DNA of 64,000 nt from an uncultured Bacilli bacterium (GTDB taxonomy: Bacteria; Bacillota_I; Bacilli_A; RF39; UBA660), in assembly GCA_934090735.1 (NCBI GenBank), contig CAKOJR010000002.1, positions 138,788 through 202,787 of the forward strand, read 5' to 3'. The notes beneath the pieces are model-generated. The model did not search any database. It was not told where the DNA came from and worked only from the letters and a program-made list of their open reading frames with translations. This document shows positions 7,567 to 40,300 of this stretch, one piece after another (positions within the stretch are counted from its first letter, which is position 1; each line of letters starts with the position of its first letter). The position numbers and the translations under genes are program-made.

Positions 7567-7591
7567 AAAAAAAGAGCCTAGGTTATAGGCT
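7567..7591 (-). terminator. rho-independent terminator after paralogue A
   Basis: Minus strand AGCCTA-TAACC-TAGGCT followed by CTTTTTTT. Stem overlaps the stop codon. Nearly the same hairpin recurs at 9264-9286. Confidence 0.5.
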
Positions 7592-17236: not shown

Positions 17237-19027
17237 TTATAGTCCTCCACCTGAACCAAAGGAATCTAGTTCATCTTGAGTAAGAACTACATTTATTCTC
17301 ATACGTCTATTACCGCATACAAATAGTGCTTCACCTTGACTGTATGTTTTAATACTTTCTTTTTCATTGTCGTTTAGATCAATTAATCTTGATAAGTCTT
17401 CAACTGCTTGCTTTTTAAGTCCCATTACTAGGTAGTATGCTGCGTTGTCAAAGATTGCTTTTCCATGAACAAAGATATTTTCAGCAGCAAAGTCTGTAGG
17501 TTGCTGAGTGATAATGATTGTTCCTGTGTTGTATTTACGGCTACGTCTTTGAATTTGTGCTAGGAATTCGGCACCAAGTTCATTTTTACTTGATAGAAGA
17601 ACATGTGCTTCATCTACAAACATAATTGTATTTTTAGATTTATCTAAACATAATCCCCAAGCATATTTTAGAATGTTAAAGAATAATGCATTACGAATGT
17701 TTTCATCACTATTCATTAGTTCTTTAATATTAAATACTATAAAGTCACTCTTTGTTTCGATTGTTGTGTGTCCATTAAAGTAGAATCTTAGTTCTTTTAC
17801 AAAAGGTCTAACTCTTAGTTCTAGACGTTCCATAACGTCTTTTTCTCTTGTTGCTTCTGGCATTGATAAAAGTTTTCCTTTAATGGTTGCATATACGTCA
17901 TCAAAGATTGGAAAGTCTTTTGAGGTAAACTGACTAAAGTCTGTATTAAAATCAATACCGAATCTTTTATAAGTGTCTTGAACAACTTCACTAAACATTG
18001 CTAGAACGTCTTCTTCGATTGATGGATAGTAATATTTCATGAAGGCTTTTAATGATTGAAGAGTTCTTGTTAGAACTGTGTATCCTAAACCTTCTTTGAT
18101 TTCTTCTTCATCCGCATCGAAAATTACTTCTAGTGGGTTTACCATACCAAATGAACCACCACGACCTAAATCAATGAAATCGCCACCAAAGTTATGAGTC
18201 ATTTCACTTAATTCGCCTTCAGGGTCAATAGCAATAATTTTACAACCGTTTCTTATATGTGTTCTAAGCATTAGTTTAGCAGCAGTTGATTTACCACTAC
18301 CAGAAGTACCTAAAATAATCATGTTAGCATTGTTTCTATTAAACTCTTTTTTAGTTTGATATAAGAACTGATTAAATAAGACTACACCACCAGAGAAATC
18401 AACACCTAATAATGTGCTTGATCCTGGATCTTTAATACTATCAAAAACAAATGGGTACATTGCTGCTATTGTTGGACTAGGAATAGGAATACCTACTCTT
18501 TGCTCTACGTCTTGTTTAGGGAATATAGGAATCATTGATTTTAGAACTTTTTCTTGCTCAAACATCATTGGGATTCCCCTCATTCCCATTGCATCAAGAT
18601 AGTTTCTAATTTGCATTTTTTTATTTTCTAATTCTTCTTTTGTATCAGCTGTTAGCATGATATGCATTTGAAAGTCAAATATTTTTGATTGAGTTGCTGC
18701 AAGCATTTGGGCAAATGATTCTAAAGATTCGTAATCTTGACGAATTATTTCTTGCCTTGTTCTTTCATTTTCTCTTTGATAACTTTCTTTTAAATCAGCT
18801 ATTTGTTTATTGATCATACGACTCATTGTAGAAAAGTCGATAGGAATATGTTTAATTACCACTTTTACACCTGGTAAGTTAGTAATATTTGCTAAAAATC
18901 CAGGGCCTATAATTTTGGGGTAACTTATGATAGTTAATATTGTTGCATATTTATCACTAATCATAAATTCATTTACATCGAATTTCATTCCTTTAGGAGC
19001 TATTTCACTTTTAAATGTATTAGACAT
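17237..19027 (-). CDS. VirB4-family T4SS ATPase, C-terminal (ATPase) portion
   Basis: 596 aa. Walker A ILGTSGSGKST, Walker B IMFVDEAH. N-terminal segment DKYATILTIISYPKIIGPGFL is typical of Gram-positive VirB4/TraE/PrgJ proteins. Confidence 0.85.
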   Translation of the reverse strand: MSNTFKSEIAPKGMKFDVNEFMISDKYATILTIISYPKIIGPGFLANITNLPGVKVVIKHIPIDFSTMSRMINKQIADLKESYQRENERTRQEIIRQDYESLESFAQMLAATQSKIFDFQMHIMLTADTKEELENKKMQIRNYLDAMGMRGIPMMFEQEKVLKSMIPIFPKQDVEQRVGIPIPSPTIAAMYPFVFDSIKDPGSSTLLGVDFSGGVVLFNQFLYQTKKEFNRNNANMIILGTSGSGKSTAAKLMLRTHIRNGCKIIAIDPEGELSEMTHNFGGDFIDLGRGGSFGMVNPLEVIFDADEEEIKEGLGYTVLTRTLQSLKAFMKYYYPSIEEDVLAMFSEVVQDTYKRFGIDFNTDFSQFTSKDFPIFDDVYATIKGKLLSMPEATREKDVMERLELRVRPFVKELRFYFNGHTTIETKSDFIVFNIKELMNSDENIRNALFFNILKYAWGLCLDKSKNTIMFVDEAHVLLSSKNELGAEFLAQIQRRSRKYNTGTIIITQQPTDFAAENIFVHGKAIFDNAAYYLVMGLKKQAVEDLSRLIDLNDNEKESIKTYSQGEALFVCGNRRMRINVVLTQDELDSFGSGGGL

Positions 19028-19577
19028 TACTCATCACCGTCCCATACTCATTTTTCTTTCCTCCATTAAGGAAGTTTTGTAGCAAAAATTTTAAGTCATC
19101 ATCACTTGCTTGTCTTGAATTTAAGCCGCAACCGGCTAAGTTTGCAATCATGGTTTGAACTCTTTTTTGAACTACGTCTAGTCTTTTATCTCTAAATAAG
19201 AAAAAGTATTCTGTATCGACAGCGCTAATACTGCTTCCACTAAACATTTCGGCTTTTTGAATGTCTTGATTAATTAGTTTTCTTACAGCCTGATTTTGTG
19301 CATTATCGTATTGTAATTGTAGTTGGGATAGATACAATTTGATATCTACTGGTCTATCTGCTACTACTAGCCAGAATTCATAGTCTAGTGTGTTATAAAA
19401 ATTTCTTAAATTAAAGATTATGGTATTTTGAGTTTGATAATCAAGGATAAAGATATTTTTTGGTTCTACCTTTATACCTGTAACATAATAATTGTTATTT
19501 AGGATTATCATTCCATTTTGAATGGCTTTAACTGGTACCCAATCTTCAGAATACTTACTTGTCATCTGTTTTGCCAT
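19020..19577 (-). CDS. VirB4-family N-terminal domain encoded as a separate, translationally coupled ORF
   Basis: Start set at MAKQMTSKY (AAGGTTGGTG SD 8 nt upstream). Sequence WVPVKAIQNGMIILNNNYYVTGIKVEPKNIFILD resembles the N-terminus of full-length Gram-positive VirB4. Stop overlaps the next ATG (ATGTCTAA). 185+596 aa approximates a normal VirB4 length. Confidence 0.6.
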   Translation of the reverse strand: MAKQMTSKYSEDWVPVKAIQNGMIILNNNYYVTGIKVEPKNIFILDYQTQNTIIFNLRNFYNTLDYEFWLVVADRPVDIKLYLSQLQLQYDNAQNQAVRKLINQDIQKAEMFSGSSISAVDTEYFFLFRDKRLDVVQKRVQTMIANLAGCGLNSRQASDDDLKFLLQNFLNGGKKNEYGTVMSNV

Positions 19578-19878
19578 AACTATTACACCAACCTTTCCAA
19601 TAATAAACTCGATTATTTGTATAATATGTAAATACGTTTTTAATAAATGTTCGTACGTTATGCTGATTTGGTAAAGGTACAATTAAGAACGTACAAATTA
19701 GTGCCGGGCAAAGTATTATAAGTGCTGTTTTTAAGTTATTTGTAGGTATTGATAGCATAAGTACGAAGCTTATTACAACACCACTTATAAATATGATTAA
19801 ATCCGTTGTATTAAATAACCCAAGTATTAACATTGATTTTTTTGAGTTTGCCGGTATCAAGTAATTATTATTATCCAC
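19555..19878 (-). CDS. VirB3/PrgI-like small membrane protein
   Basis: 107 aa. GTG start with AGGAGG 8 nt upstream. Two hydrophobic helices. Lies immediately upstream of VirB4, as VirB3/PrgI does. Confidence 0.45.
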   Translation of the reverse strand: MDNNNYLIPANSKKSMLILGLFNTTDLIIFISGVVISFVLMLSIPTNNLKTALIILCPALICTFLIVPLPNQHNVRTFIKNVFTYYTNNRVYYWKGWCNSYGKTDDK

Positions 19879-19895: not shown

Positions 19896-20342
19896 TTAAA
19901 TTGATTTCCCTAGATGAAATTCTAATATCTTTTTATTTTCTTGCGCTACTATGTAGTTAGCTAGATATTCTTTAACTTTTAAGTGGTTACCATAGTCTGG
20001 TACAATTAAACCATTCCTTTTTGCTTGGATAGTCTTTCCTCTAAGATATTTATCAATTTCTCTTTGAATCCTTTCAGCTAATTCCTTTGGAATTGCTTCA
20101 TATAAACGTAATTTTTTCACTAAAAAGTAATTTCTTATTTCAGTTTGACTTTTACCTTTAAATTGACCTTCAAGTTTACCACCTTGATAATCAACTAATG
20201 TTGATTTAAGAGCTTCTTCAATTGAATTCAGTACGTCTTCATCAGCAAGTTGCCAATAGTAATCACTTAATTCAATATATTTTTTACAAAATACTAAATC
20301 ATTTTCCCTTTGAGGCCCATTTATAAAACTATCTATACTCAT
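19896..20342 (-). CDS. hypothetical cytoplasmic protein, T4SS cluster
   Basis: 148 aa, no TM. Start shares one nt with the stop of the upstream VirB6-like gene (TAATG coupling). No motif recognised. Confidence 0.4.
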   Translation of the reverse strand: MSIDSFINGPQRENDLVFCKKYIELSDYYWQLADEDVLNSIEEALKSTLVDYQGGKLEGQFKGKSQTEIRNYFLVKKLRLYEAIPKELAERIQREIDKYLRGKTIQAKRNGLIVPDYGNHLKVKEYLANYIVAQENKKILEFHLGKSI

Positions 20343-22426
20343 TATTTTTTATCCTTCTGTTTTTCTACTGTGCTTGCAAATGTATTTGCTTTAACTTGTT
20401 TATTAATTGCTTTAGAAACATCTCTAAGTTTTGCTATATCATCAGGTGTTGCCAGTTGCTCACTTGCTCTAGTGAAAATTTCACCCAACTCATCTATACT
20501 GGTTATACCATTTGCAGCAAGAACTGCTTTTCTCGCTTCATCTCCTAATGTGTTAAGTGTTTTTTCCATTTGTGAGCATATTATCTTGCCTTCGTCCTTT
20601 AGTGCACTTCCAAATGCTGCATCGTTAAACTTTTGTTCTAATGTTTCTCTTTGTAGTTCCTCAAAATGAGCATTAATTATACCATCATCTAAATTAGTTA
20701 CTGGCACGGCTGTTCCTGCAGCATATAATGTTCCATCTTTTCCTTTAATTTCTTTTCTAAACCTAACACTTTTACCATTTTGATAATCTTTTAATGCACC
20801 TTTTCTTGCGCTTTCAGTTTCTGGATCTGTAAATGCATCAAATAGTGTTGTGAATTTTGATTTCATCGCTTGAGCTGCTGCTAGTTTTTCATTTGAAACT
20901 CCCCTATTATTAAGGAAATTATCAAGATTGTTAATTTTTCCTGAAACCCATGTCTTAGGGTCTTGAGTAGCTGCTTGTGCTTCTGAAACTACTGTATCTT
21001 TTAGATGAACTGCTTTGCCAGGAATTGCTCTTACATCATTTTTAATTGCATTGATATCTGCAATTTCTTGAGTTCTTGCATTTCTGATAGCACCTTTTAC
21101 TTCGCTCCAGTCACTAACATTACCATTTTGCCATCCTCTACGTCCTGCGTTAAGTGCTGTAGGAACAACTCCTGCTAAACCAAGTGCACCTCTGGCTAGT
21201 CCACGGGCAATGTGTCTTTGACCTTTTTGATCTTTTTTAAATCCTTCAACAAATGCTTTTCCACTGTTAAATAGTGATTGAGGCACTCTTGCTGCTACTG
21301 CACCGCCAAGTGTTGCTGCTCTTTTTGCATATTCATTATCATTAAGTTTTTTCTTGATTGACATTTCTGGTATTTTAATACTAAATATTTCTTCGATAAG
21401 TTTTGGGGCATCTTTAGCAAATTTTAAGATTCCTAAGATTACAACTACGGTTGCTACTATGTTTACTAAGGCACTACCACCACTAGCAAATACGTTAATA
21501 TCAGATACAAACCCGATTAAGAGCATTGCAAAGTTTATAATAATTATTCTTTCAAATATTTGTAGATATGTTTTAGAGAACTCACCAAACCATTTGTCGA
21601 ATACGCCACCTTTTGGTTTTGTTATTCTTAATAGTATTGGAACAGGTGCGATTAATTTTAGTGCCCCTAGTTTAGCTGCTCTTACTCCTAAATCTAATGA
21701 GAATGATAAGAATAGATATGCTGCTACTACACCTGCAATGGTACTTAATGGGAATAGGTATTCCATTTTTTCATCACTGATGCCTTGTCTTAAATCTGGA
21801 TCTTTAAAGAAACGATAAAGACCAGTCATACTATTTTTTCCTTCTTCTGCAAGTTCTCTATAATGTTCGCACATTTCTATTGATGAGTCTTCACATTCAA
21901 CTAAAGTAACTGCTTCTTTATTTTCATTAAGTGGATGATAAAAAGCAGTAAAAATTGTTACAGAAACATTTAATGCTCCTTTAGTCGTTCCATTTTCTCC
22001 TGAGTCACTGGCAGTTGATCCCATTATAAGATTACCTAATGTGTTGTTTTCAACAATATGGTCTTGGAATATCTGCATATACTCGCAAATTAATGGGAAT
22101 AATGTAACTAAAACTATTGATATAATGGTATTTTGAATAATATTCTTAATTGATTTATCACCTTTATTTAATTGATCCGGGTCAATTATGGAAAGAATGA
22201 TATTGTATGCGAAAACAAAAAGCATTACGATACCAATTATCGTATATATTCTTCTTGATATAACGCCTACGTTTTCTGTTGTAAATACTTCTACTTTACT
22301 AACTACTTCAAATAGCTGGTAACATACATTTATAATCATGTATATAACATAATCTATTGATAGAAGAATCCCATAAAAAATATTGGCTGCCCAGGTTCCG
22401 AATCCAGCTCCTGTTAGTATTCCCAT
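20342..22426 (-). CDS. VirB6/TrbL/PrgH-like polytopic membrane protein with large hydrophilic C-terminal domain
   Basis: Start at MGILTGAG (AGGAGG 7 nt upstream). About 6-7 TM helices in the first ~370 aa, then a Lys/Ala-rich soluble half. Assignment from topology, size and position only. Confidence 0.45.
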   Translation of the reverse strand: MGILTGAGFGTWAANIFYGILLSIDYVIYMIINVCYQLFEVVSKVEVFTTENVGVISRRIYTIIGIVMLFVFAYNIILSIIDPDQLNKGDKSIKNIIQNTIISIVLVTLFPLICEYMQIFQDHIVENNTLGNLIMGSTASDSGENGTTKGALNVSVTIFTAFYHPLNENKEAVTLVECEDSSIEMCEHYRELAEEGKNSMTGLYRFFKDPDLRQGISDEKMEYLFPLSTIAGVVAAYLFLSFSLDLGVRAAKLGALKLIAPVPILLRITKPKGGVFDKWFGEFSKTYLQIFERIIIINFAMLLIGFVSDINVFASGGSALVNIVATVVVILGILKFAKDAPKLIEEIFSIKIPEMSIKKKLNDNEYAKRAATLGGAVAARVPQSLFNSGKAFVEGFKKDQKGQRHIARGLARGALGLAGVVPTALNAGRRGWQNGNVSDWSEVKGAIRNARTQEIADINAIKNDVRAIPGKAVHLKDTVVSEAQAATQDPKTWVSGKINNLDNFLNNRGVSNEKLAAAQAMKSKFTTLFDAFTDPETESARKGALKDYQNGKSVRFRKEIKGKDGTLYAAGTAVPVTNLDDGIINAHFEELQRETLEQKFNDAAFGSALKDEGKIICSQMEKTLNTLGDEARKAVLAANGITSIDELGEIFTRASEQLATPDDIAKLRDVSKAINKQVKANTFASTVEKQKDKK

Positions 22427-22437
22427 AGTTGTTCCTC

Positions 22438-22785
22438 CTACTCTATACAAGTTGTGTATCTATCATTGATGAAGCTTAATAAAAGATTTAATAATATTGG
22501 TAAAAAGAATAATACTGCTACTAGGATAAGTCTTGTCGTAAGTTTTTTATTGACTTTTTTATATTCTTCTGGGTCTTTATTTACTAATGCAACTATGTAG
22601 TCATAAGTTGAATAAGCAATTACTAATATTGGGCCTATTATTTTCATGTATTTAAAAATATTTGTTAAGTCTTCCATTGTTGATTCGCCTAATAAACCAG
22701 AACATGTTTCTTCTGATAAAGCATATACATTATTATTTATTGTTAAAATTAAACCTAGTATTATAAGCCAAGCCTTTTTTTTCAT
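22438..22785 (-). CDS. VirB2/TrbC-like two-helix hairpin protein, paralogue 3
   Basis: Signal peptide MKKKAWLIILGLILTINNNVYA. Motifs YMKIIGPILVIA and KKLTTRLILVAVLFFLPI ... FIND ... C, shared with ORFs 23866-24192 and 26122-26535. Confidence 0.4.
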   Translation of the reverse strand: MKKKAWLIILGLILTINNNVYALSEETCSGLLGESTMEDLTNIFKYMKIIGPILVIAYSTYDYIVALVNKDPEEYKKVNKKLTTRLILVAVLFFLPILLNLLLSFINDRYTTCIE

Positions 22786-22812
22786 ATTAATCAAACCTCT
22801 ATATACACTATA

Positions 22813-22841
22813 ATTTTAATATAAATTCAATTATATTGCAA
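22813..22841 (-). promoter_or_regulatory. putative sigma-A promoter of the T4SS core operon
   Basis: Minus strand TTGCAA-N17-TAAAAT, about 25 nt upstream of the 22785 start. AT-rich genome, so chance matches are common. Confidence 0.35.
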
Positions 22842-22863
22842 GAAAAAATGCTGTAATTAGTTT

Positions 22864-23763
22864 TTATTCGGGTGCTATCTCATTTTTGTATTTTAGCTTA
22901 TAAATATTTGTGGTTTCAATGTATAATGCTTGTCTTCCCATTGAGTCATAACTTTTATTAAATTTTTCTCTTGAAACTTTAATATTTTTTTCGTCTTTTA
23001 AAGGGTCATTGATAAAATAATAGTCTTTATCCATACCTACAATTACTACTACATGAGCATTTTTAGGATATGTATAGGTTTTTGATTTATCATAACTAAA
23101 CCATTCATAAACTTCTTTGACTTCGCTGTAATCGGTTGTTGTCCATACTAAGACTGGATTACCACTTTGAACATACTCTTCTAAAGGTCTTTTATCATCT
23201 GAAGTATAAACATGACCTACTGTATCTTCTGGAAGCATTTTTTTAAAAATTGTATATATAGAATTTTTTATTACGGGTAAAAAAGTTCCCCATCCGCCTT
23301 TTTCACTGCTTGGGTCTCCTGCATAAAACTCGCTTGGATCTGGGCCAAAACGGACTCCATTATTTTCATAAACTTCTGCTTTTGGTAAAAAAGAATCAAC
23401 GTATTCTTCCATTGCAATGTCAATGCCTGCATATTTTAATAGCATGGTAGCACTTGCTACTTCACAACCGTTAGGATAGTCAGGATTTTGTTTTACTAAT
23501 GGAAAATTGTTAGTGATGTAACTATATTGTAATTTGCTGTAATAGCTATCTAAAATGTCTTCATAGTCGTAAATACTATAATTGCTTCCTTTCTTTGATA
23601 ATATTAACCTGTTAGTGTAATAATCATCTTTTAATGATGGAATTATTGCATGTTTTAATTTATCTTTTTCTCTTGTATATAGTTTATACCATACGAAATT
23701 ATTAGATATTATTATAATTATTAAGATACTAATTATTATTGTTTTATATTCTTTCTTCTTCAT
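22864..23763 (-). CDS. membrane-anchored C39-like (YvpB-type) cysteine peptidase
   Basis: 299 aa. N-terminal TM. QNPDYPNGCEVASATMLLKYAGI (catalytic Cys context) and NAHVVVIVGMD ... NDP (His/Asp region) fit the Peptidase_C39_2 pattern. Confidence 0.55.
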   Translation of the reverse strand: MKKKEYKTIIISILIIIIISNNFVWYKLYTREKDKLKHAIIPSLKDDYYTNRLILSKKGSNYSIYDYEDILDSYYSKLQYSYITNNFPLVKQNPDYPNGCEVASATMLLKYAGIDIAMEEYVDSFLPKAEVYENNGVRFGPDPSEFYAGDPSSEKGGWGTFLPVIKNSIYTIFKKMLPEDTVGHVYTSDDKRPLEEYVQSGNPVLVWTTTDYSEVKEVYEWFSYDKSKTYTYPKNAHVVVIVGMDKDYYFINDPLKDEKNIKVSREKFNKSYDSMGRQALYIETTNIYKLKYKNEIAPE

Positions 23764-23769
23764 ATTTAG

Positions 23770-23778
23770 ATTATAACA
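23770..23778 (-). promoter_or_regulatory. extended -10 element (TGTTATAAT) 6 nt upstream of the C39-like ATG; possible leaderless transcript
   Basis: Minus strand ...GCTTATGTTATAATCTAAATATG. No Shine-Dalgarno between the -10 and the ATG. Confidence 0.3.
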
Positions 23779-23834
23779 TAAGCTATATTATTTGTATTTG
23801 CAAATATAAATATTTTACATTACTATACTTATAA

Positions 23835-23862
23835 CTAAAAAAAATCTCAATAATTTGAGATT
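23835..23862 (-). terminator. rho-independent terminator after the 108-aa VirB2-like gene
   Basis: Minus strand AATCTCAA-ATTA-TTGAGATT (8-bp stem) followed by T8. Confidence 0.7.
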
Positions 23863-23865
23863 TTC

Positions 23866-24192
23866 TTAGTCGCAATTCCAAGGACTTAAAATACAATCTT
23901 GGCATTTTTTGAAATTATCTATTGGCATATCTTTATATCCATTGATAGTACCAAATAACCACATTACTACAGTTGGTACGAAGAAAATTAGTACACCAGC
24001 AATAGCACGATACATTAAACGCTTACTAGCTACTTTAATATCATCATCTTTGCTTCCAACAACTGCTTTTCCTAAATCAAACATACCATATCCAATAATT
24101 AATAGTGGAATAGCTATTTTAAATATTGTTAAGATCCAACCAAGAAATCCTAATACGTCTGCTGCTTGATCACAAAATCCGGTAACGTTCAT
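23866..24192 (-). CDS. VirB2/TrbC-like two-helix hairpin protein, paralogue 2 (no signal peptide)
   Basis: 108 aa. FCDQ...IFKIAIPLLIIGYG...SKRLMYRAIAGVLIFFVPT...TINGY...KKCQDCILSPWNCD. AGGGAG SD upstream. Confidence 0.4.
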   Translation of the reverse strand: MNVTGFCDQAADVLGFLGWILTIFKIAIPLLIIGYGMFDLGKAVVGSKDDDIKVASKRLMYRAIAGVLIFFVPTVVMWLFGTINGYKDMPIDNFKKCQDCILSPWNCD

Positions 24193-24251
24193 AATTCACA
24201 TCTCCCTTACATAATTAAATTTTATCTAAATTTTTCGTTATTGTCAACAAA

Positions 24252-25322
24252 TTATTTAAAAAGGCCGAAAAAACTTGTACTTCCTTGTTTTCCAAAACCT
24301 AATTTAAGTAGTAATTTATCAACAACAAGTAATCTTTCTGCTCGGTCGTTAATTGCCGGCATATTGTAGTATACTTTGAATTTTGTTTCGTATTCAAAGT
24401 TTGATAATTCATCATCCTTTATTGCACTTTGATTAAGTATTATTTTTCCACCTGCTATTTTTTCTCTAATGTTAATGTCTTTTTTTAGTGCTTTATTTAA
24501 AGTTATTATTCCAGGTTTTACTAAATATAAAATGTCATGACAAAGATTTTTCTCTTCTAATCCATTTAAGTCTATTAAGATTATTTCGGTATCTCTAGCA
24601 ATATTTATTTTATATTTAAGATCCTCTATTGATGTACAGAATGTAATATCTCCATCTTTAAAATAAATTGAGTCTTGTTTAAACATTTCAAATGCTTTGA
24701 CTTTATAATTTATTCTTAATTGTTTTAACATCATGTACATTAGAGTTGTAGATCCTGCATGGTCGGTTACATTTTGGATTCCAATAATTCTAGCGCTTGT
24801 TTTTATTGATTCTGCTTCTTTGACGTATCCTGGATTGTAGTCATTATTTGGATAGTAGTTATTTTGGTATGATTGGTTACCAAACGTATTTGGACCCATC
24901 TGATTTACTGCTATGCTTTGACTTTGACTTTGATTTAAACTATCTAAATATTTACTAACGTCATTTAGTGTGTTTGGGTGTGACAGAAGATAGTTTATAC
25001 CAGCCGCATTTCTAGTAAAGTTGTAGTAGCCATTTTGCACTAGAAGTGTTAGGTAGCTACTACTATTTACTAATTCACTGTTGTTAAGCAGAAGAACTGT
25101 CTTATTTGGGCCAAAGAAACTTAAGAACCTTAAAACTTCTTTGATATCAAAGTAGTTTTTTATAGCGGTTATATCGATTACGGCATTATTATAAAATAGG
25201 TTACCTAGCTGTTCTTCGATGGACTCTCTAGTAAACTCTCCTGTAACAGTTTTAATTGAGTTGATATCGACACTATCAATTATTTTACTATTTTGATTTT
25301 TAATTATTATGTTTATATTCAT
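24252..25322 (-). CDS. TadZ/CpaE-like protein: receiver-like N-domain + MinD/ParA-fold domain with degenerate P-loop
   Basis: 356 aa. N-terminal beta-alpha pattern (INIIIKN, AVIDITA, KTVLLLN), Q/N-rich linker. RIIGIQNVTDHAGSTTLMYMMLKQL sits in place of KGGxGK(T/S)T, followed by EIILIDLNG and KIILNQS strands. Confidence 0.4.
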   Translation of the reverse strand: MNINIIIKNQNSKIIDSVDINSIKTVTGEFTRESIEEQLGNLFYNNAVIDITAIKNYFDIKEVLRFLSFFGPNKTVLLLNNSELVNSSSYLTLLVQNGYYNFTRNAAGINYLLSHPNTLNDVSKYLDSLNQSQSQSIAVNQMGPNTFGNQSYQNNYYPNNDYNPGYVKEAESIKTSARIIGIQNVTDHAGSTTLMYMMLKQLRINYKVKAFEMFKQDSIYFKDGDITFCTSIEDLKYKINIARDTEIILIDLNGLEEKNLCHDILYLVKPGIITLNKALKKDINIREKIAGGKIILNQSAIKDDELSNFEYETKFKVYYNMPAINDRAERLLVVDKLLLKLGFGKQGSTSFFGLFK

Positions 25323-25334
25323 GTTAAATCTCCA

Positions 25335-25811
25335 TTAATCTGGGCTATCATAGCCATTATCATTTGCAAAATATATTGGCTTAGTTTCACCTGTTATTGG
25401 AAATGTAAATATTTCTCCAAAAATAGGTAAATCCACTCTAAAAAAGACAGTTACTTTATAATAATTTTTTTGAATATTACCATTATTATCAATAATCCTC
25501 GCAATACAGTATTTGTATCTATTTAAATTTACTGAGCTTCTTTCAAATCCTCTTGCACTATCAAGGTTAGATACATCTGCATAAGTTGGACAAGTACTGT
25601 AAACTACGTATCCTACCGAACTTAAATAGTCTTTGATTTCATCTTTGGTAGTTACGCTTACTCCTTCATTTTTTTCAACAATATTAACAATGCCATTTTT
25701 TACTTTAAAAGCTTTAGAATAATTAATGGATAATGCTAGAAAACTAGTAAAAAGTACTATAAAGACAATAACGATAGTGAAAAGCCAGGTTCCACCTATC
25801 GATTCTCTCAT
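25335..25811 (-). CDS. membrane-anchored protein with prepilin-like leader (pseudopilin/TadE-like topology)
   Basis: 158 aa. MRESIGG then hydrophobic TWLFTIVIVFIVLFTSF. Shares M[KR]ExxG and FTSF with the 79-aa ORF upstream. Confidence 0.25.
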   Translation of the reverse strand: MRESIGGTWLFTIVIVFIVLFTSFLALSINYSKAFKVKNGIVNIVEKNEGVSVTTKDEIKDYLSSVGYVVYSTCPTYADVSNLDSARGFERSSVNLNRYKYCIARIIDNNGNIQKNYYKVTVFFRVDLPIFGEIFTFPITGETKPIYFANDNGYDSPD

Positions 25812-25821
25812 ATGTTATATC

Positions 25822-26061
25822 CTATTCTTCTTTATTTGGACATTGTACTGGTTGTATAGCGTTGTTTTCATCTAAATATGAACAATCACATAACTCTGCA
25901 CCTTCGGTACACTCACAGTTGAATGCTTGAGAACAGTTGGCACTTCTTGTAATGTTTGCTCTAATTGAAGGCCAAATAAATGAAGTAAATACTACTCCTA
26001 TTGCAGCAATTGCAACTACTGCTACCGCAGTCATACTTAATTCACCTGATGCTTCTTTCAT
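25822..26061 (-). CDS. small pilin-like protein: short charged leader, hydrophobic helix, six-Cys C-terminal region
   Basis: 79 aa. MKEASGELSMTAVAVVAIAAIGVVFTSF, then NCSQAFNCECTEGAELCDC...QC. Strong AAGGAGG SD. Confidence 0.3.
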   Translation of the reverse strand: MKEASGELSMTAVAVVAIAAIGVVFTSFIWPSIRANITRSANCSQAFNCECTEGAELCDCSYLDENNAIQPVQCPNKEE

Positions 26062-26086
26062 TATTATTCCTCCTTATCTTAAAATA

Positions 26087-26115
26087 ATTATATAATAAAA
26101 AGAATTGTAAATCAA
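26087..26115 (-). promoter_or_regulatory. putative sigma-A promoter for the 79-aa/158-aa/TadZ-like/108-aa unit
   Basis: Minus strand TTGATT-N17-TATAAT, overlapping the terminator hairpin at 26097-26120. SD and ATG follow within ~25 nt. Confidence 0.4.
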
Positions 26116-26120
26116 TTCTT
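26097..26120 (-). terminator. rho-independent terminator after the 137-aa VirB2-like gene
   Basis: Minus strand AAGAATTG-ATTTA-CAATTCTT (8-bp stem) followed by TTTAT. Confidence 0.55.
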
Positions 26121-26121
26121 T

Positions 26122-26535
26122 TTAACAATTATTTGGGTGAAATAGACACTCCGTACATGTTTCATATTCACCTTGATAATTTGTCCAGTCATTGATGGTT
26201 GATAGAGCAATATCAAGGATAGTTGGAAGTAAAATTATAATAACACCTGTGAGAATTCTTTTACCTAATGTTTGGGTACATTTTTTAAGTTCATCTTCTT
26301 TTCCTTCTTTAACGCCATTATAGAAGATAAATGCACCTTGACCAATTATTATTAGGGGTACAAATAATTTTATAAACATAATTATGTAACCAACAAATCG
26401 CATTACATTTTGAACTTCTTCTTTAGCGCACATGTTTTCTGCTACTGCTTCGGCATTTACAGATAGTGGCATGATTAATAATATTAAAAGAAGAAATTTT
26501 AAGTATCTTTTTTTATTCGTAGTCATAATTATCAT
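26122..26535 (-). CDS. VirB2/TrbC-like two-helix hairpin protein, paralogue 1
   Basis: 137 aa. Signal peptide ...LLIMPLSVNA. MCAKEE...FIKLFVPLIIIGQG...GKRILTGVIIILLPT...TINDW...TCTECLFHPNNC. Start overlaps the end of the upstream adhesin gene. Confidence 0.4.
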   Translation of the reverse strand: MIIMTTNKKRYLKFLLLILLIMPLSVNAEAVAENMCAKEEVQNVMRFVGYIIMFIKLFVPLIIIGQGAFIFYNGVKEGKEDELKKCTQTLGKRILTGVIIILLPTILDIALSTINDWTNYQGEYETCTECLFHPNNC

Positions 26536-27664
26536 CTTCTTTCTGTTCTGGCATTTTAGTTATAAGTTTGTAAATTACGTAGCCGCATACTCCAAGTAAA
26601 ATAATAATTAGAAATATTAGTCCAAAATTGCTGGATTTTTTAATTGTAATTGTGTAATCTCTGGAGTTACCATTTTCAGCTACTACGGTGATAACTATTT
26701 TACTTTTGTTTTTTAAGTTACTATTATTTTTAACTTCATATGTTGCATTATCACTTTGAGTTTCAACTGTTATATTTAAAGTTTTATCACTTTTGTTTAT
26801 TTTTAATGTGTAATCATTTTTTTCGGGATTAAAATCAATATTATATCCTTCTATTTCAATTCTTGATAGGAAGGAATTGTCATCTAGTTCATCAAGATAT
26901 GATAGATTTATTTGATAAATTCTTATAGAACCATCTTCAGCAGTTACAGTAACAGTTATTGGTTTTTCGATATCAATGTTTTCGTTGTTTTCAATTTTTA
27001 CTGTTGCTTTATCGCTTTCAGCTTTAGCAGTTACTTCAATACTGCTAGTTTCTCTTGATATTTTTAAGTAATATGTTTCTACTTCTTTGCTAAAGATAAA
27101 GTCAGTGTCTTTTAAAGTAAGTTCTTTTAAGTAATTATTACCATCTTTTAGATTTTCAGTGGTTGTAGTTGTGGTTGTAGTGCTTGTAGTTGTTTGAGAG
27201 GTAGTTTTACTTGTTGTACGTGAAGTTGTTTTTGTAGTTTTGGTAGTCTTTTTTGTTGTTGTAGTTGTGGTTGTAGGTTTTGTTGTACTTTTGTATTCTA
27301 GGCCATTACTTGTTCTACCGCAGTCATATGATGCAAGAATTCCACAGTAACTTGGATAAGATGTTGTACGGCATGAACCACTATAGGCAGTGCAACTACT
27401 TTTAGCTACGTAATATAGTGGGTCTGTATTGCCATTTGAGCATCTTACTAATCCAACTGTATAGAACTGAGTTTGCCATGTTCCACTATAACAAGTTGCT
27501 TTTACACAGTGACCATAGTATCCTTGATTAAAACTTCCTTGAGCGTAACTTGCTTGAAAATCCAAGCATGTTTCTAGGTCTTTTACGTAGCTAACATCTA
27601 AGTCAGCGTTTACTTTGATCGGAATTAAAGCAGCAAGAAGTATGGTTAATAAATACTTTTTCAT
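26513..27664 (-). CDS. surface protein: signal peptide, Cys-rich head, Thr/Lys-rich stalk, two cadherin-like beta-sandwich repeats, C-terminal TM anchor
   Basis: Start at MKKYLLTILLAALIPIKVNA (ATG 27662-27664); the track extension runs through a terminator hairpin. TTTTTTTKKTTKTTKTT tract. Repeats LKELTLKD...YQINL and LSRIEIEG...YTITIKK match the PF12733-type pattern. Confidence 0.6.
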   Translation of the reverse strand: MKKYLLTILLAALIPIKVNADLDVSYVKDLETCLDFQASYAQGSFNQGYYGHCVKATCYSGTWQTQFYTVGLVRCSNGNTDPLYYVAKSSCTAYSGSCRTTSYPSYCGILASYDCGRTSNGLEYKSTTKPTTTTTTTKKTTKTTKTTSRTTSKTTSQTTTSTTTTTTTTENLKDGNNYLKELTLKDTDFIFSKEVETYYLKISRETSSIEVTAKAESDKATVKIENNENIDIEKPITVTVTAEDGSIRIYQINLSYLDELDDNSFLSRIEIEGYNIDFNPEKNDYTLKINKSDKTLNITVETQSDNATYEVKNNSNLKNKSKIVITVVAENGNSRDYTITIKKSSNFGLIFLIIILLGVCGYVIYKLITKMPEQKEDDNYDYE

Positions 27665-27673
27665 ATTACCTCC

Positions 27674-27713
27674 AAAAAAAGATACCGACTTGTTAACCAA
27701 AATCAGGTATCTT
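27674..27713 (-). terminator. hairpin terminator/attenuator between the 200-aa and 383-aa adhesin genes
   Basis: Minus strand AAGATACC-(19 nt)-GGTATCTT followed by T6, which runs directly into the GGAGG of the next gene. Confidence 0.45.
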
Positions 27714-27750
27714 CAAATCTATATTAATAATATCATAAAATTATTAATAT

Positions 27751-28353
27751 TTAAATCTTTTTAAATACATTTTTCTTATTTAAAATAAATAGTCCACCAA
27801 TTAATACAGCAGCAGTTGTTCCTAATAATAGATAATAGTCTTCTACACCAGTGTCTGGATTTGTTCCGTCATCTTTAGTTGTATCGCTTGAACCATCGCC
27901 ATCTTTATCTGCTGTTTTTGTAGTAGTAGTTGTTGTTTTATAATCATCACCACTTGTATTTTTTGCACAGTTATAAAATATTTTTTGAGTGAAGTAAACA
28001 TATGGACCACTATCTGTACAAGATGAGCCTGCTTTCATTTCACTAGTTATTGCTCCAGCGTCAATTATAGCATTTGGTTTAGTGTTGCCATTAGCACAAC
28101 TTACTGAGTATGTATTAAGTTTTGTATGAACATTTTTACTATTTGTACAAGATACTTTAATACATTCTAAATAGTAACCTGCGGTGGCATTTGAAATGCT
28201 TGTGCCACCGTTTTGATTAACTGCTTCTTTACATTTGGTTTCAGCGTCTTGTTCATCTTTTAAATTCCAAATTGTTGTTGTTGTATTTTGATCTACTTTA
28301 GCAAATACACCTATAGGCATTATGAGTAATAAACTAATTAATAATTTTTTCAT
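27751..28353 (-). CDS. surface protein: signal peptide, Cys-rich head homologous to 26513-27664, Thr-rich stalk, NPDTG sortase-type sorting signal
   Basis: GYYLECIKVSCT...SVSCANGNTKP aligns with GYYGHCVKATCY...LVRCSNGNTDP. C-terminus NPDTG + hydrophobic + KKNVFKKI. Confidence 0.6.
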   Translation of the reverse strand: MKKLLISLLLIMPIGVFAKVDQNTTTTIWNLKDEQDAETKCKEAVNQNGGTSISNATAGYYLECIKVSCTNSKNVHTKLNTYSVSCANGNTKPNAIIDAGAITSEMKAGSSCTDSGPYVYFTQKIFYNCAKNTSGDDYKTTTTTTKTADKDGDGSSDTTKDDGTNPDTGVEDYYLLLGTTAAVLIGGLFILNKKNVFKKI

Positions 28354-28360
28354 ATTATCC

Positions 28361-31300
28361 CTACTTTCCTAAATATTCTTTCATTTTTTTATGTTTCTTA
28401 CGAACTACTATTATTATACCCGCTCCTAGAATAATTACACTACCAATTAATACGGCGGTAATTTCTAGTGTTTTGTTGTAACTATCTTTTTGAATATCTA
28501 TTGAGTAGATATTTGTAGCTCCGTTTTCAGCAACTACTTTGATTCTTACTGTACTAAATCCAGTTAATGAGTTATTACCATACATGTATACTTCAGATCT
28601 ATTACTTGTAGGTGTTGCTGTTATGATTAAGCTCTTTTCTCTTTTGATTTTGACTGTGTAGTCTAGTTTTTCTGGAGAGAAGTCAATTCCATAATTTTTA
28701 ACTGTTAATGATGAAAGAGTAACGTCGTTAGATATTTCTAAACCAGCTTCTTTTCTGATTACTGTTACAGTATATGTTTTTGTTAATTTACCATTTTTGA
28801 CAGTTATTTTTAGGTTATTAGCACCAACTTTAAGGCCTCTATCACCTTCAACTTCAGCAAAGGCATTATCGCTTTCTGGGAAGGCGTATACGTTTACTGA
28901 TGAGTATTCATATGGAACGGTTACTGCGTATTCATAAATTTCTTTATTAAAGTCAATTGCTGTTCCTTCGATTGTTAGTGTGTCTAAGTAAGCACTTGTA
29001 CTAGTTTCTTCTTCAGCACCTTTTTTAATGAATGTTAGAACGTAACTTCTTGTGATACCAGATTCACTGATTACTTCAAGTACTGATGTGGTAATGTCTT
29101 CGGTTAGTTCTACTTCACGAGGTTCATTTCCTTCAACGAATGATGAAGTATCACTAGCAAGTGTACCATTAATACTTACCTTTTTAGTGTTCTTTGGTAC
29201 TTCAATGTTGTAGTCTGTTACATATGGGTCAAATTCAATTTTTCCTTTACTTACTGTTAAGTCTGTTAGTAAGTTGTTTGAAACTCTGTCATCTGTTCTT
29301 GTTGCGATGATTGTATAAGTTCTTACTTTGCCAGATTTGTTTTTAATTTTGATTAAGATTTTATTTTCGCCATATTCTAGATTTACTGTTCTTGGTTCAT
29401 AGCCTTCAACGTATGAAGCGTCGTCGCTAGTAAGAGTTGCAAATACACTTATTTTATCACTGTTAACTTCGATTTTGTAACCCATTGATAATGAGTCGAA
29501 ACCAGCTAAAGCTTTGTCATTTTTAAGTCTATTTGATAGGAGTGAGTAACCACTTGGCATTACGTCTAAATAAGCATTTTCACCTTCAATACTATTTAAG
29601 GTTACTGCTACATCATTAGCATCTTTAACACTTAGTGATTCAAGAGTGTTTGTAATATCAGCGTCATGAACGATTGCAAACATTGGTCTACTTAAGATAC
29701 CTTGGTCATCTCTAACCCATGCATAGTATAGACCAGCAGGTTTTTGTTCATATGCTATTGTGTTAGCATCAGCAAAGTCTTTCCAAACGCTATCCACTGT
29801 TGGATTTGATGAATCATCTAGATAGTAACTTTTAACATCATTAGAAATTTTTCTTCCTTTTACAGTGATTGTTCCTAATCCTTGATTTAGTAGTGATGCG
29901 GAAATTTCAACAGCAGGTCTTGTACCATTTGAGCAAGATACTAGGTATGTTTTATGACATGTTCCGTTTTTAACTTTATTACATGTATTTTCAGTTTGTT
30001 CTACTGGATTTTGTGTATAATCTTTTGCACATGTGAACATGTCCATTACGTCGATATTTTCAACAATTTTATTATCTTTCTTTTCATAACAGATATTTAT
30101 TTTTTTACTTACATCTGTTACATCAGTTTGTTTTTCACTTGACTTACAGTCTTTTTCACCGTCACCATTAAGAGCGTTACATTCATCTTCATTTTGTGCT
30201 GATTCATCAATTTCGTATTTATCTGATAGGTCTTCTTCTGACCAAATATATTCGTCTTTATCTTCATTATAGTAGCATCTAGCTTCTACTGGTTTTTCGT
30301 CTTCTGGTGCACATGATGATTTATCAATTTGTCTAGCTGTTAAATCGTTACGATATACGTAGCCTTCGGTGCCATCATAAGTTACTTTACAATATTGACC
30401 ATTTGAATAAGCACAAGCTTCTGTCATGTTTCCAGAAATTTTTACTGATTCTGCACACGGAATATTATTGTCAGATGAACCACCAATGTCTCCTGTGTTT
30501 GTATATAAAGGGGTAGATCTTAAAGTATATCTTGTTTGTTCTTTACAACTTGCAGGTATAGCATCAAAGCTTACTACTAACTGATTACGATAAACTTTAG
30601 TAGTTGTGTTTACTGATACACCATTTACTTTAGTAATCGTACATGTTGGGTTAGCACTTGAAGATGCTGTTTCACATGTAGTTACATAAACTTCATCACC
30701 ACATGAAACTTTATATCCACCAGCTGAAGCATTTTCTTTAGCATATCTTATTGCATTAACAGGTTCAGTATTTGGTGTTGGTGTTGGCACAGGAGTTACT
30801 GGAGAAGGTGATGGAGTGGTTGAAGTAGACTTCCACTGTGCATAATATGCTGTATCAGAGTTGTGTACTACGCCTCTTCCTGGCTGTACATATGATGAAC
30901 AAGCTTTTGCATTTTTACAATATCCTAAAAATTTATAATTTGATCTTGTTGGTGTTGGCATATCGATTGCACATGAGGTGCTATTGCATGTTTTTGTTTG
31001 AATGGATTCACCTGTATTATAAAATGTTCCACCGTTTCCATTAAATACTACTTCGAAAGAATTTGTTGATTGCCATTGTGCATAGTATGTGGCAGCTGCA
31101 CTATGTACTACGCCTCTTCCTGGTTGTACATATTTTGAACATGTTTTTGCATTTTTACAATATCCTAAAAACTTATAATTTTTTCTTGTTGGTGTTGGCA
31201 TATCGATTGCACATGAGGTGCTATTACAGGTTTTTGTTTGAGTGGATTCGCCTGTATTATAAAATGTTCCACCATTTCCATTAAATACTACTTTGAAAGA

Positions 31301-33453: not shown

Positions 33454-34359
33454 TTACTTTCTTCTGTTATCGCTTATTAATTCAAGATTGTCTGTTAGTT
33501 GTTTGATTCTTTCCATTATTCTTCCGGATTTTATTTGTTCTTCTGCTGTTTTGGAAGTTGCAAAGTGAGATGCTAATTCTTCTAAGTTTAGGTTTGATGT
33601 GAAAAATGTAGCTTTTTTTTCTTCCATTCGGTACTGAAGGATTGTGCCTAGAACTTCATCTCTATTCCATCCTGTTACGGTTTCAGCTCCTATATCATCA
33701 ATTAGGAGTAAGTCTGCTTCTTTTAATGATTTAATTCTTGTGTAATAGTCATCATTTGTAAAGGATTCTTTAAGGCTTCTTAATAACTCTGGGTAGTAGA
33801 TTATAAGGGCAGTATAGCCTTCTTTTGATAGTTCGTTTAAAAGGGCACTTATTAGATATGTTTTACCACTACCGAATGAACCATGTAAGTATAAACCTTT
33901 TTCGAATTTACCTTCTTTAAAGTTATCATAGAATTTTTTTAGCCATTTAATTATTTTAACCCTTTTAGCATCTGTGATATCGATATTAGACATTTTAGCT
34001 GTTTTAATTTCATATGGCATTTCAAAGAACTCTGATTTTATTTCGGCTTTTTCTTTAAGGATTGCTTTTTTATATTTGCATGCTACATAGTTAAATGTGA
34101 CATTATCTTCTTCAACGGCCGGATAGTATACTGCACCTTCTACTTTATTTTTACACATGTGAATGCTTTTACAGTTTTTGCAGTTTTCAAGTTCTTGCAT
34201 AGTTCTTTCAATTTTAGATGTGTATTTATAAGCAATACTATCTTTTATTTTTAATTTTTTGACTGTTTTTTTAAATTCTTCGTTTGTAAGGGCGTGGGCA
34301 TAATCTCTTTTTAGAGCATCATCTAAGTTTGGTTTTTGATATTTTTTTAGTTCTTCCAT
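33454..34359 (-). CDS. dnaI: primosomal helicase loader DnaI (DnaC-type AAA+)
   Basis: N-terminal Cys cluster CKNCKSIHMCKN...C, Walker A LHGSFGSGKTYL, Walker B LLLIDDIG. Directly downstream of dnaB, as in Bacillus. Confidence 0.8.
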   Translation of the reverse strand: MEELKKYQKPNLDDALKRDYAHALTNEEFKKTVKKLKIKDSIAYKYTSKIERTMQELENCKNCKSIHMCKNKVEGAVYYPAVEEDNVTFNYVACKYKKAILKEKAEIKSEFFEMPYEIKTAKMSNIDITDAKRVKIIKWLKKFYDNFKEGKFEKGLYLHGSFGSGKTYLISALLNELSKEGYTALIIYYPELLRSLKESFTNDDYYTRIKSLKEADLLLIDDIGAETVTGWNRDEVLGTILQYRMEEKKATFFTSNLNLEELASHFATSKTAEEQIKSGRIMERIKQLTDNLELISDNRRK

Positions 34360-34360
34360 T

Positions 34361-38163: not shown

Positions 38164-38610
38164 TTAGCTATTACATATGTTATCTACGAAGCAATCATTT
38201 AAGCATCTAATAGCACAGCAGCAGTTTAGATTCATTGTGAAGAAGCTATTTGTAGCTAGGTAAGGCTCAGTGGTGCTGTCTGCGTTTGCTACTAATACTC
38301 TAAATGTTGCACAGTTGTTATCTACCTTTTCTACTCTAAATACTGTACTACAGTTTTCTGCACCAGTAGCAGTACAATCAGTAGTGGCATCTTTTGTTGT
38401 TGGCATACTAAATGGTGTTCCATTACCTGCACATGTATAAAGCATTATTGGTCTAGTGTTACATACTATGCAATTTGGAGAGCCACCTAACATTGGTCTA
38501 TCACATGAATCTAGTCCACTTTCAGGACAAACATTTTGCTGAAGTATTTGAATTACTTTAAGTGTTTCAGCAATGCAGTTACCAGAGTTTGTTTCTGTAT
38601 TATTACACAT
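38164..38610 (-). CDS. CotZ/CotY/ExsY-family Cys-rich spore coat (crust/exosporium) protein
   Basis: 148 aa. NCIAETLKVIQILQ..C...C.RPMLG, NTRPIMLYT..G.PF, FRVEKVDNNCATFRVL and NLNCCCAIRCLND follow the order of conserved blocks I recall from Bacillus ExsY/CotY. Confidence 0.8.
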   Translation of the reverse strand: MCNNTETNSGNCIAETLKVIQILQQNVCPESGLDSCDRPMLGGSPNCIVCNTRPIMLYTCAGNGTPFSMPTTKDATTDCTATGAENCSTVFRVEKVDNNCATFRVLVANADSTTEPYLATNSFFTMNLNCCCAIRCLNDCFVDNICNS

Positions 38611-40292: not shown

Positions 40293-40300
40293 TCTTGCAC

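Follow-up and report, generated by a model that had tools for sequence, protein, structure and literature searches.

Three PF18895-related hairpin proteins as candidate VirB2-type subunits of a type IV secretion locus in gut Bacilli

Do walled monoderm bacteria possess VirB2-type subunits for their type IV secretion systems (T4SSs)? According to reviews, VirB2 homologues are absent from Gram-positive T4SSs, with the Patescibacteria as the single exception (PMC12857230). The question is raised by a locus of an uncultured Bacilli bacterium (assembly GCA_934090735.1, contig CAKOJR010000002.1), situated within a stretch of 64,000 nucleotides (positions 138,788 to 202,787 of the contig). This whole stretch is referred to as the window, and all positions given below are window positions. 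In a sequence-only reading of the window, three small open reading frames (ORFs) had been singled out as diverged paralogues with the two-helix layout of VirB2/TrbC pilins. All three were found at the places named, on the minus strand, and their products are designated here as paralogues A, B and C (lengths in amino acids, aa):

26122-26535, minus strand: pilin-like paralogue A, 137 aa, with signal peptide, Cys36, helix 1, basic loop, helix 2 and a Cys tail
23866-24192, minus strand: pilin-like paralogue B, 108 aa, without signal peptide, with Cys7, the hairpin and a Cys tail
22438-22785, minus strand: pilin-like paralogue C, 115 aa if started at the ATG and 118 aa if started at a TTG at 22794, with signal peptide, one N-proximal Cys and one C-terminal Cys

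We propose that A, B and C are VirB2-type, PF18895-like two-helix subunits of a monoderm T4SS resembling those of mycoplasma integrative conjugative elements (ICEs), here in walled gut Bacilli. We regard this as an evenly balanced proposition.

The relationship between the three proteins was assessed by pairwise BLASTP. A and B are 31% identical over 100 aa (2e-20), and the comparisons of A with C and of B with C gave values of 2e-6 and 3e-6, respectively. As these values are well beyond chance, A, B and C are true paralogues, and the kinship previously seen by eye is borne out. The motif described for helix 1 is present as written in the three ORFs (FIKLFVPLIIIG / IFKIAIPLLIIG / YMKIIGPILVIA), and the same holds for the TIND / TING / FIND motif and for the cysteines near both ends. 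When the three orthogroups were aligned together, invariance was restricted to P29, R62, P73 and C97 (numbering of B), with C7 and L59 close to invariant.

Signal peptides, helices and topology were read from hydropathy and charge analysis. A signal-peptide-like N-terminus was detected in A (..SVNA/EAV) and C (..NVYA/LSE) and not in B, in agreement with the earlier assignment of signal peptides to two of the three copies; it is missing from the whole B orthogroup. All three proteins contain two long hydrophobic helices, and the loop between them carries 4-6 Lys/Arg residues. The N- and C-terminal segments, which bear the cysteines, are acidic or uncharged, the tails being acidic. Because of the positive-inside rule, the loop is expected in the cytoplasm and both termini outside. 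The predicted topology of A, B and C is therefore of the VirB2 type and the opposite of that of VirB3. Furthermore, AlphaFold2 models of full-length B and mature C were built with family alignments. Both are clean helical hairpins, with a pLDDT of 76.7 for B (helices 11-45 and 49-82 and a short C-terminal helix) and of 79.3 for mature C (helices 11-47 and 50-88). In the latter model the predicted helices comprise about 37-39 residues, which clearly exceeds the span of a bilayer. Hydropathy, charge and the AlphaFold2 models agree in predicting the two-helix hairpins claimed by the sequence-only reading, and from hydropathy and charge the termini are predicted outside and the basic loop inside.

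Cysteine conservation was computed over 205 locus-derived family members from 81 loci, aligned to the hidden Markov model (HMM) of the family. The N-proximal Cys is conserved in 99% of these members, which answers the earlier question of whether the Cys positions are kept in homologues and lets the disulfide idea withstand the refuting condition set for it, and the two helix prolines are conserved in 100% and 99%. The tails of A (C127-x2-C130-x6-C137) and B (C97-x2-C100-x6-C107) have the same spacing, and C-x2-C-x6-C is 96-98% conserved in A and B types; in proteins of the C type, each end has one Cys. Few features of the family are as strongly conserved as the Cys pair. A Fisher test for the coupled loss of both cysteines was discarded, since most of the 'losses' were artefacts of hydropathy boundaries. 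In the model of mature C, one Cys precedes helix 1 by 5 residues and the other follows helix 2 by 3 residues, both being at the hairpin's open end. Because the conserved N- and C-proximal cysteines flank this open end, a disulfide 'staple' is plausible: an intramolecular bond may join the ends of the hairpin, and a second one may form in the tails of A and B. No report of a disulfide-closed T4SS pilin was found in the literature. Among the proteins of the locus, the Cys content of exported proteins is 1.94% as compared to 0.52% for cytoplasmic ones, which is unusual for Firmicutes.

The assignment to a family rests on Pfam and NCBIfam. With PF18895 (T4SS_pilin; gathering threshold 26.6 bits), sub-threshold matches were obtained for B (20.1 bits) and C (22.3 bits). 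The same family was matched by 17 of 28 B orthologues (E <= 0.01) and by 45 of 147 superfamily representatives (E <= 0.001), and no other Pfam family recurs. Two orthologues of B exceed the threshold, namely P0076 with 28.0 bits, which is 50% identical to B (E = 4e-21), and P0074 with 26.9 bits; both also give weak cross-matches to CagC (PF16943; E = 0.0032 and 0.042). Three distant homologues of C (P0130-P0132, E ~1e-11 to C) carry a precomputed PF18895 annotation. The relation of A, B and C to PF18895 is thus shown transitively, via clear homologues that pass the threshold. In NCBIfam, C matches NF045849, the 'Mbov_0395 family pilin-like conjugal transfer protein', with 17 bits (E = 0.0036), short of the curated cut-off of 40 bits; this family is also weakly matched by 3 of 33 family members, with a best E of 6.8e-5. 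C further matches the mycoplasma ICE families NF045848 and NF045889 weakly. Overall, a chain of weak links seems to lead from the window family to PF18895, from there to CagC/TraB, and finally to TrbC/VirB2.

The three genes are part of a larger locus, in which every gene between about 7.5 and 33 kb is encoded on the minus strand. Read as transcribed, it begins with three Cys-rich cadherin-like surface proteins, followed by A, genes for proteins of 79, 158 and 356 aa, B, a C39-like peptidase and C. It continues with a polytopic protein of 702 aa, a soluble protein of 148 aa, VirB4 in two ORFs and an M23/lysozyme hydrolase, and ends with two small membrane proteins, a GDSL/NlpC-P60 protein, a TrsH-like protein and a VirD4-type coupling protein. 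The main features, including a gene pair at the flank, are as follows:

33454-35635, minus strand: dnaB-dnaI-like pair flanking the locus (Pfam DnaB_2, IstB-like, WHD_DnaB)
26513-32353, minus strand: three Cys-rich surface proteins of 395, 200 and 1330 aa with cadherin-like and Listeria-Bacteroides repeat domains
24252-26061, minus strand: conserved three-gene block between A and B (79, 158 and 356 aa)
22864-23763, minus strand: C39-like cysteine peptidase with an N-terminal membrane segment, between B and C (Pfam Peptidase_C39_2, E = 2.9e-19)
20342-22450, minus strand: VirB6-like polytopic membrane protein, 702 aa (NF045889, Mbov_0396 family ICE transmembrane protein, E = 1.9e-6, model positions 7-301 of 306)
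19020-19682, minus strand: VirB4 N-terminal fragment, a separate ORF of 220 aa (NF045975 positions 71-281, E = 4e-16)
17237-19027, minus strand: VirB4-type ATPase, C-terminal two thirds (NF045975 VirB4_plasma, Mbov_0397 family, positions 294-891, E = 1.1e-106)
15137-17218, minus strand: cell-wall hydrolase with M23 peptidase and lysozyme domains, with a VirB1-like role
12316-14115, minus strand: GDSL lipase / NlpC-P60 protein
9288-11573, minus strand: VirD4-type coupling protein (Pfam T4SS-DNA_transf, E = 5.9e-55; NF045973 CD1115 family, E = 1.8e-90)

C sits directly 5' of the VirB6-like gene and overlaps it. The ATPase part of VirB4 contains the Pfam AAA_10 and TraG P-loop, and the N-terminal fragment has one hydrophobic segment (17-38). 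The two halves of VirB4 (17237-19682) lie in different reading frames. Since about 40 related loci show the same split, it seems to be genuine and no product of misassembly. With regard to the three-gene block, the 79-aa protein consists of an N-terminal membrane helix and an ectodomain with 6 Cys, the 158-aa protein has an N-terminal membrane helix, and the 356-aa protein (24252-25322) is without membrane segments and contains the conserved motifs IG..N.T.HAG.TTL and DLN. None of the three block proteins has a match in Pfam, NCBIfam or the PDB, and a profile of the 356-aa protein likewise found nothing in the PDB; a P-loop-like motif in this protein is a by-eye impression only. The C39-like peptidase gene, a lineage-specific insertion in close relatives, is found in 2 of 80 loci and also in L084, a related assembly in fragments. 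As only 2 of 80 loci have the gene, it was rejected as a general pilin-processing enzyme.

The surface proteins encoded at 26513-32353, which are probable adhesins, have Cys-rich N-terminal domains, Thr-rich linkers and cadherin-like domains in common, and the gene for the 1330-aa protein contains a tandem repeat of 240 nt at 30825-31304. At the other end of the locus, two tandem paralogous genes (7590-8336 and 8422-9168, minus strand) encode proteins of 248 aa each, their DNA being partly 72-85% identical. These two proteins gave no family match; each has an N-terminal hydrophobic segment that contains a Cys and an ectodomain with 4 Cys. Genes of a type IV pilus, encoding the prepilin peptidase PilD and the platform protein PilC, are located at 39537-41968 on the minus strand, which is upstream of the T4SS locus by a few kb; a CotZ-like spore-coat gene (38164-38610) is next to them.

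How the three genes are transcribed was addressed as well, since each copy had been described as sitting at the edge of a predicted transcription unit. This placement was not supported. The genes of the region all run in the same direction and are separated by 59-102 nt or overlap slightly, and no terminator-like site was detected between the genes on the minus strand from 22 to 27 kb. Promoter-like sites numbered 85 as compared to 73 +/- 8 in shuffled sequence, i.e. there is no enrichment. The best sigma-70-like site of the scanned 14-kb region is located at 24219-24247 on the minus strand (TTGACA, 17-nt spacer, TAAAAT; 11 of 12 matches), in the 59-nt gap directly upstream of B.

Are such genes peculiar to the window? 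A scan of one genome per GTDB species yielded at least 254 relatives of B, of which 80 loci were kept. The relatives come almost exclusively from metagenome-assembled genomes of uncultured 'Bacilli', 'Tenericutes', 'Mollicutes' and 'Erysipelotrichaceae', presumably RF39-like lineages, of the gut of humans and animals. Across the species of this set, the genes are arranged as in the window (A, block, B, C, VirB6-like, VirB4, hydrolase). A occupies the same place, after the adhesins and before the three-gene block, in 35 related loci; the VirB6-like gene directly follows C in 48 loci, C always adjoining it, and the VirB4 N-terminal fragment is present in 41 loci. When the family HMM was applied to 81 loci, including the window, 207 pilin-like ORFs were retrieved, 2 of which are marginal and outside the family. 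The number of pilin-like genes per locus ranges from 1 to 7, with one in 27 loci, three in 26 and four to seven in 14. A, B and C represent three conserved orthogroups of one superfamily. Three paralogues in one locus, which had seemed unusual, are thus not an oddity, given 1-7 copies in related loci and 2-11 in the arrays of Patescibacteria.

The related loci fall into three architectures. Type I is that of the window. In type II (13-16 loci, among them L007, L011, L016, L021, L028, L037, L040, L048 and L063), dnaB-dnaI, an adhesin, the three-gene block and B are followed by housekeeping genes, with no VirB6/VirB4 within 10 kb. The downstream genes (flippase-like, TrmB, lipoprotein, YtxH, TyrRS) are kept in 12 species at 30-87% protein identity. 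Type III (7 loci) has arrays of 4-7 family members followed by VirB6/VirB4, and the three-gene block is missing. Taken together, proximity to VirB6/VirB4 was seen in 40 of 56 loci with enough downstream DNA, leaving 16 without an adjacent core, and among the 66 loci that extend far enough upstream, B is accompanied by the block in 49, some of them without the T4SS core.

An exhaustive profile search of 1.84 billion representatives, with clustering at 50% identity, indicated a superfamily of 10,374 clusters at E <= 1e-3 and 6,367 at E <= 1e-10. A precomputed Pfam label is absent from most family members. Many members of the superfamily are 200-540 aa long (200-490 aa among those retrieved by the profile search), with a C-terminal hairpin and a variable N-terminal ectodomain (representatives among P0141-P0280). 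Sporadically, the N-terminal domain is a GDSL lipase, a C39 peptidase (C39_2 in one distant member) or an alpha/beta hydrolase. Members with long ectodomains form arrays that comprise up to 7 genes and precede VirB6/VirB4 (L052, L059, L061, L069, L073 and L077).

Is the locus a mobile element? Relaxase, integrase and transposase were not recognised by Pfam and NCBIfam among ORFs >= 90 aa between 7.5 and 38 kb, and neither a tRNA gene nor flanking direct repeats were detected in the window. On these grounds the reading as an integrative conjugative element was rejected, although a relaxase may have escaped recognition. Megablast of 15 kb and tblastn of B against the PLSDB plasmids gave no match, and the system is therefore not on a known plasmid. 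The flanks contain the housekeeping genes for a Mur ligase, DacB, GlmM, iPGM, a Clp ATPase and CdaA/YbbR. A 'DnaD/DnaC replication module' was considered for the pair at 33454-35635 and replaced by a chromosomal dnaB-dnaI pair, given the WHD_DnaB, DnaB_2 and IstB-like domains and the co-divergence of the pair with the locus; these are probably chromosomal replication genes. The pair adjoins the locus in 21 species, and the identity of locus genes to those of the window tracks that of DnaI, with a Spearman rho of 0.69 for B, 0.79-0.87 for the block genes and 0.86-0.95 for VirB4. The locus looks chromosomally resident, because it is next to dnaB-dnaI and co-diverges with that pair, and the simplest reading would be a long-resident, vertically inherited chromosomal locus.

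How could such proteins work? In the mechanism that we propose, each protein would be inserted into the membrane with its termini outside and the Lys/Arg-rich loop in the cytoplasm. A and C would take up this position after cleavage of the signal peptide, and B by translocation of its short uncharged N-terminal tail. A disulfide could form between the N-proximal Cys, located about 5 residues ahead of helix 1, and the first of the C-proximal cysteines, a few residues beyond helix 2. This bond would close the open end of the hairpin as a topological counterpart of the head-to-tail cyclisation of VirB2/TrbC, and the tails of A and B carry a further Cys pair. A platform of VirB4 and the VirB6-like protein might extract the subunits from the membrane and stack them into a short conduit or pilus-like stalk through the wall. 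The three orthogroups would be non-redundant, e.g. major and minor subunits. Pilus formation and disulfide closure are both inferences. The full version, i.e. a domesticated and vertically inherited T4SS that lacks a relaxase and builds a disulfide-closed pilus or conduit of three VirB2-type subunits in walled gut Bacilli, is unlikely in our estimation.

A number of results weigh against assigning A, B and C to VirB2-type subunits. None of the three reaches the Pfam threshold for PF18895, and A is without any match to it. PF04956 (TrbC/VirB2) was not matched by A, B or C even at E <= 10. No significant relation was obtained by hhalign between the family and VirB2 of A. tumefaciens (E = 0.16), PrgF of pCF10 (E = 0.34) or a single TraB sequence (E = 0.16), nor between the 205-sequence family profile and a 7-sequence TraB/CagC alignment (E = 0.075). 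In control searches, A. tumefaciens VirB2 matches PF04956 at 8e-18, and the TraB homologue of the pIP501-type plasmid pRE25 matches CagC at 1.3e-15, with a secondary TrbC/VirB2 match at 0.0025. A sequence-profile search of the PDB with the B family returned spurious membrane proteins only and no conjugative pilin. Thus, a sequence kinship with TrbC/VirB2, for which the sequence-only reading had proposed a search, was not recovered, PF04956 never being matched and VirB2 giving an E of 0.16 in hhalign, and similarity to classical VirB2 is not demonstrable by these searches. Because the direct tests were negative, we file A, B and C as divergent PF18895 relatives and not as demonstrated members of the classical VirB2/TrbC family. 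Structural likeness to known pilins did not emerge either: Foldseek searches of the PDB with the two AlphaFold2 models retrieved only generic helical hairpins, all with E > 1, and no conjugative pilin. We treat this outcome as uninformative and not as a refutation, because the method cannot discriminate within so simple a fold as a bare helical hairpin. Further points on this side are the 13-16 related loci in which B and the block occur without adjacent VirB6/VirB4, and the ectodomains of 100-400 aa, some of them enzymes, which are present in many family members and fit a membrane anchor better than a packed pilus subunit. Finally, no VirB5-like tip protein was recognised.

The last two points bear on a rival explanation, which we consider possible if somewhat unlikely, namely that A, B and C are integral-membrane T4SS subunits that never polymerise, either as part of a VirB6/VirB3/VirB4 translocon or as an anchor that targets ectodomains to the T4SS. 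The likeness to pilins would then be one of fold alone, as in TraB of pIP501 or CDS15 of mycoplasma ICEs. The fusions of family members to GDSL lipase, C39 peptidase, alpha/beta hydrolases and other ectodomains speak for it, as does the CagC-family protein TraB of pIP501, which is essential, Sec-cleaved and two-helical and is without a known pilus. It would also suit the statement of reviews that Gram-positive T4SSs use adhesins and not pili, the locus encoding three adhesin-like proteins. The assignment by homology would be the same as in our proposal, and only the end state differs. However, the predicted helices of about 37-39 residues are longer than a bilayer requires, the conserved Cys-bearing ends on the extracytoplasmic side suggest a structural role outside the membrane, and three orthogroups that are conserved and non-redundant exceed the needs of an anchor.

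The loci without an adjacent core lead to another explanation, distinctly unlikely in our view, in which B, the three-gene block and the cadherin-like adhesins form a chromosomal adhesion or fibre module that is independent of the T4SS and merely neighbours it in some lineages. In these 13-16 loci dnaB-dnaI, adhesin, block and B are kept while flippase, TrmB and TyrRS take the place of VirB6/VirB4, the neighbourhood being conserved in 12 species; B is found with the block (49 of 66 loci) about as frequently as with the VirB6-like gene (40 of 56), and it has a strong promoter-like site of its own. Against such a module stand the 7 loci in which arrays of the family precede VirB6/VirB4 without the block, the invariable adjacency of C to the VirB6-like gene, and the database relatives of the family, which are T4SS pilin and ICE families. 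Moreover, core-less status refers to 10 kb only, and the T4SS core may sit elsewhere in those genomes. An assignment to VirB3-like subunits, small hairpins that dock VirB4 to the membrane as considered for CDS13/CDS15 and TcpD/TcpE/ConC, is the least probable of these explanations, and we would give it very little credence. A recent review ascribes VirB3-like features to CDS13/CDS15, and A, B and C are indeed small proteins with two hydrophobic helices encoded near virB4. Their predicted topology is the opposite, with signal peptides on A and C, the basic loop inside and Cys-bearing termini outside, and the VirB3 assignment was rejected on this basis. In addition, neither A, B, C nor the family matched PrgI or TcpE whereas PF18895 recurs, the genes are upstream of VirB6 and do not adjoin VirB4, and the membrane segment of the N-terminal VirB4 fragment could itself supply a VirB3-like function.

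If our proposal of VirB2-type subunits is followed, the review statement that Gram-positive T4SSs other than those of Patescibacteria lack VirB2 homologues would be contradicted by a large and nearly unannotated branch of the T4SS_pilin family that is tied to VirB6/VirB4 in walled gut Bacillota. This family has so far been discussed mainly for Patescibacteria, and the window genes would be divergent members in a gut Firmicute. The earlier remark that Gram-positive T4SSs lack a conjugative pilin is correct as a rendering of reviews. It is at odds with the 'CagC family T4SS protein' (TraB/TrsB) genes, annotated on 482 mostly conjugative plasmids of staphylococci, enterococci and lactobacilli, and with the mycoplasma ICE family termed 'pilin-like' in NCBIfam. 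As the family is in Pfam and such labels exist, the finding extends known biology and does not define a new kind of system. It provides a hypothesis, defined at the level of sequence, on the way in which the wall might be traversed by a monoderm T4SS, and a chemical prediction, i.e. that the conserved Cys pair forms an intramolecular disulfide mimicking pilin cyclisation. Inheritance of the locus appears to be vertical and to involve no relaxase, which is reminiscent of the essential T4SS of Patescibacteria and raises the question of whether gut Bacilli with reduced genomes use the system beyond conjugation. If the reading as a disulfide-closed pilus were true, this would be the first conjugative-type pilus in Bacillota and a convergent solution to pilin cyclisation, and it might serve inter-bacterial exchange, as does the essential T4SS of Patescibacteria.

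Among the known systems close to the locus are the arrays of Patescibacteria. There, VirB2-like arrays of 2-11 genes are found beside chromosomal, relaxase-poor T4SSs of the monoderm type (Wang et al. 2023; Quinonero-Coronel et al. 2025, PMC12102498), and the VirB2-like genes and the T4SS are essential (PMC12857230). In both cases divergent paralogues (~25% identity; 1-7 per locus here, 2-11 there) are arrayed beside monoderm-type VirB4/VirB6/VirD4 on the chromosome, here without a recognisable relaxase. In contrast, the host of the window belongs to the walled gut Bacilli and is not an epibiont, its A, B and C score below the Pfam threshold, and it has three fixed orthogroups interleaved with a three-gene block. 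The near-invariant pair of N- and C-proximal cysteines is a feature of the window family.

The core of the locus resembles that of mycoplasma ICEs. In ICEA of M. agalactiae, CDS15, CDS16 and CDS17 are all needed for transfer (PMC6030558). VirB4 of the window has its best match in this group (Mbov_0397/CDS17, 1e-106), the VirB6-like protein matches Mbov_0396/CDS16, and the order of a small hairpin gene (CDS15/Mbov_0395), VirB6-like gene and VirB4 is the same. The two differ in that the pilin-family matches are far below the NCBIfam cut-offs (17 versus 40 bits), the host of the window is walled and has two additional wall hydrolases in the locus, a DDE transposase was not detected there, and VirB4 is split into two ORFs. 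A 2025 FEMS review labels CDS13/CDS15 of the mycoplasma ICE 'VirB3-like'; the topology predicted for the window proteins argues for a VirB2-like and not a VirB3-like nature.

As compared to VirB2/TrbC (PF04956), A, B and C are alike in size, two-helix hairpin and the predicted location of both termini outside, and A and C also in having a signal peptide. The termini of VirB2/TrbC are joined covalently by a peptide bond, and the Cys pair of the window family, which VirB2 does not have, could join the ends by a disulfide. The families differ in that PF04956 is never matched (hhalign E = 0.16), Foldseek retrieves no solved pilins, and the window system has no outer membrane and no recognised VirB5. 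TraB of pIP501 is essential and has a Sec signal peptide and two helices, and its authors saw no relation to VirB2 (PMC9083827). TraB/TrsB (PF16943) share with A and C the Sec signal peptide, and with the window proteins in general two antiparallel helices, the second of them kinked at a proline, a cytoplasmic loop that is short and charged, and the status of a small subunit of a Gram-positive T4SS, essential in the case of TraB. They differ by the lack of a significant sequence relation (hhalign E = 0.075-0.16) and of a terminal Cys pair in TraB proteins, and TraB is a single gene by the relaxase whereas the window has an array by VirB6. Finally, PrgF of pCF10 (L081, 14546-14773) has no signal peptide and no Cys, gives an hhalign E of 0.34, and matches Maff2 and DUF4134 weakly in Pfam and not PF18895. 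It is nevertheless a two-helix hairpin of 75 aa encoded just upstream of the VirB6-like PrgH, like B and C. This suggests that small hairpin subunits upstream of VirB6 may be a general, under-described feature of Gram-positive T4SSs.

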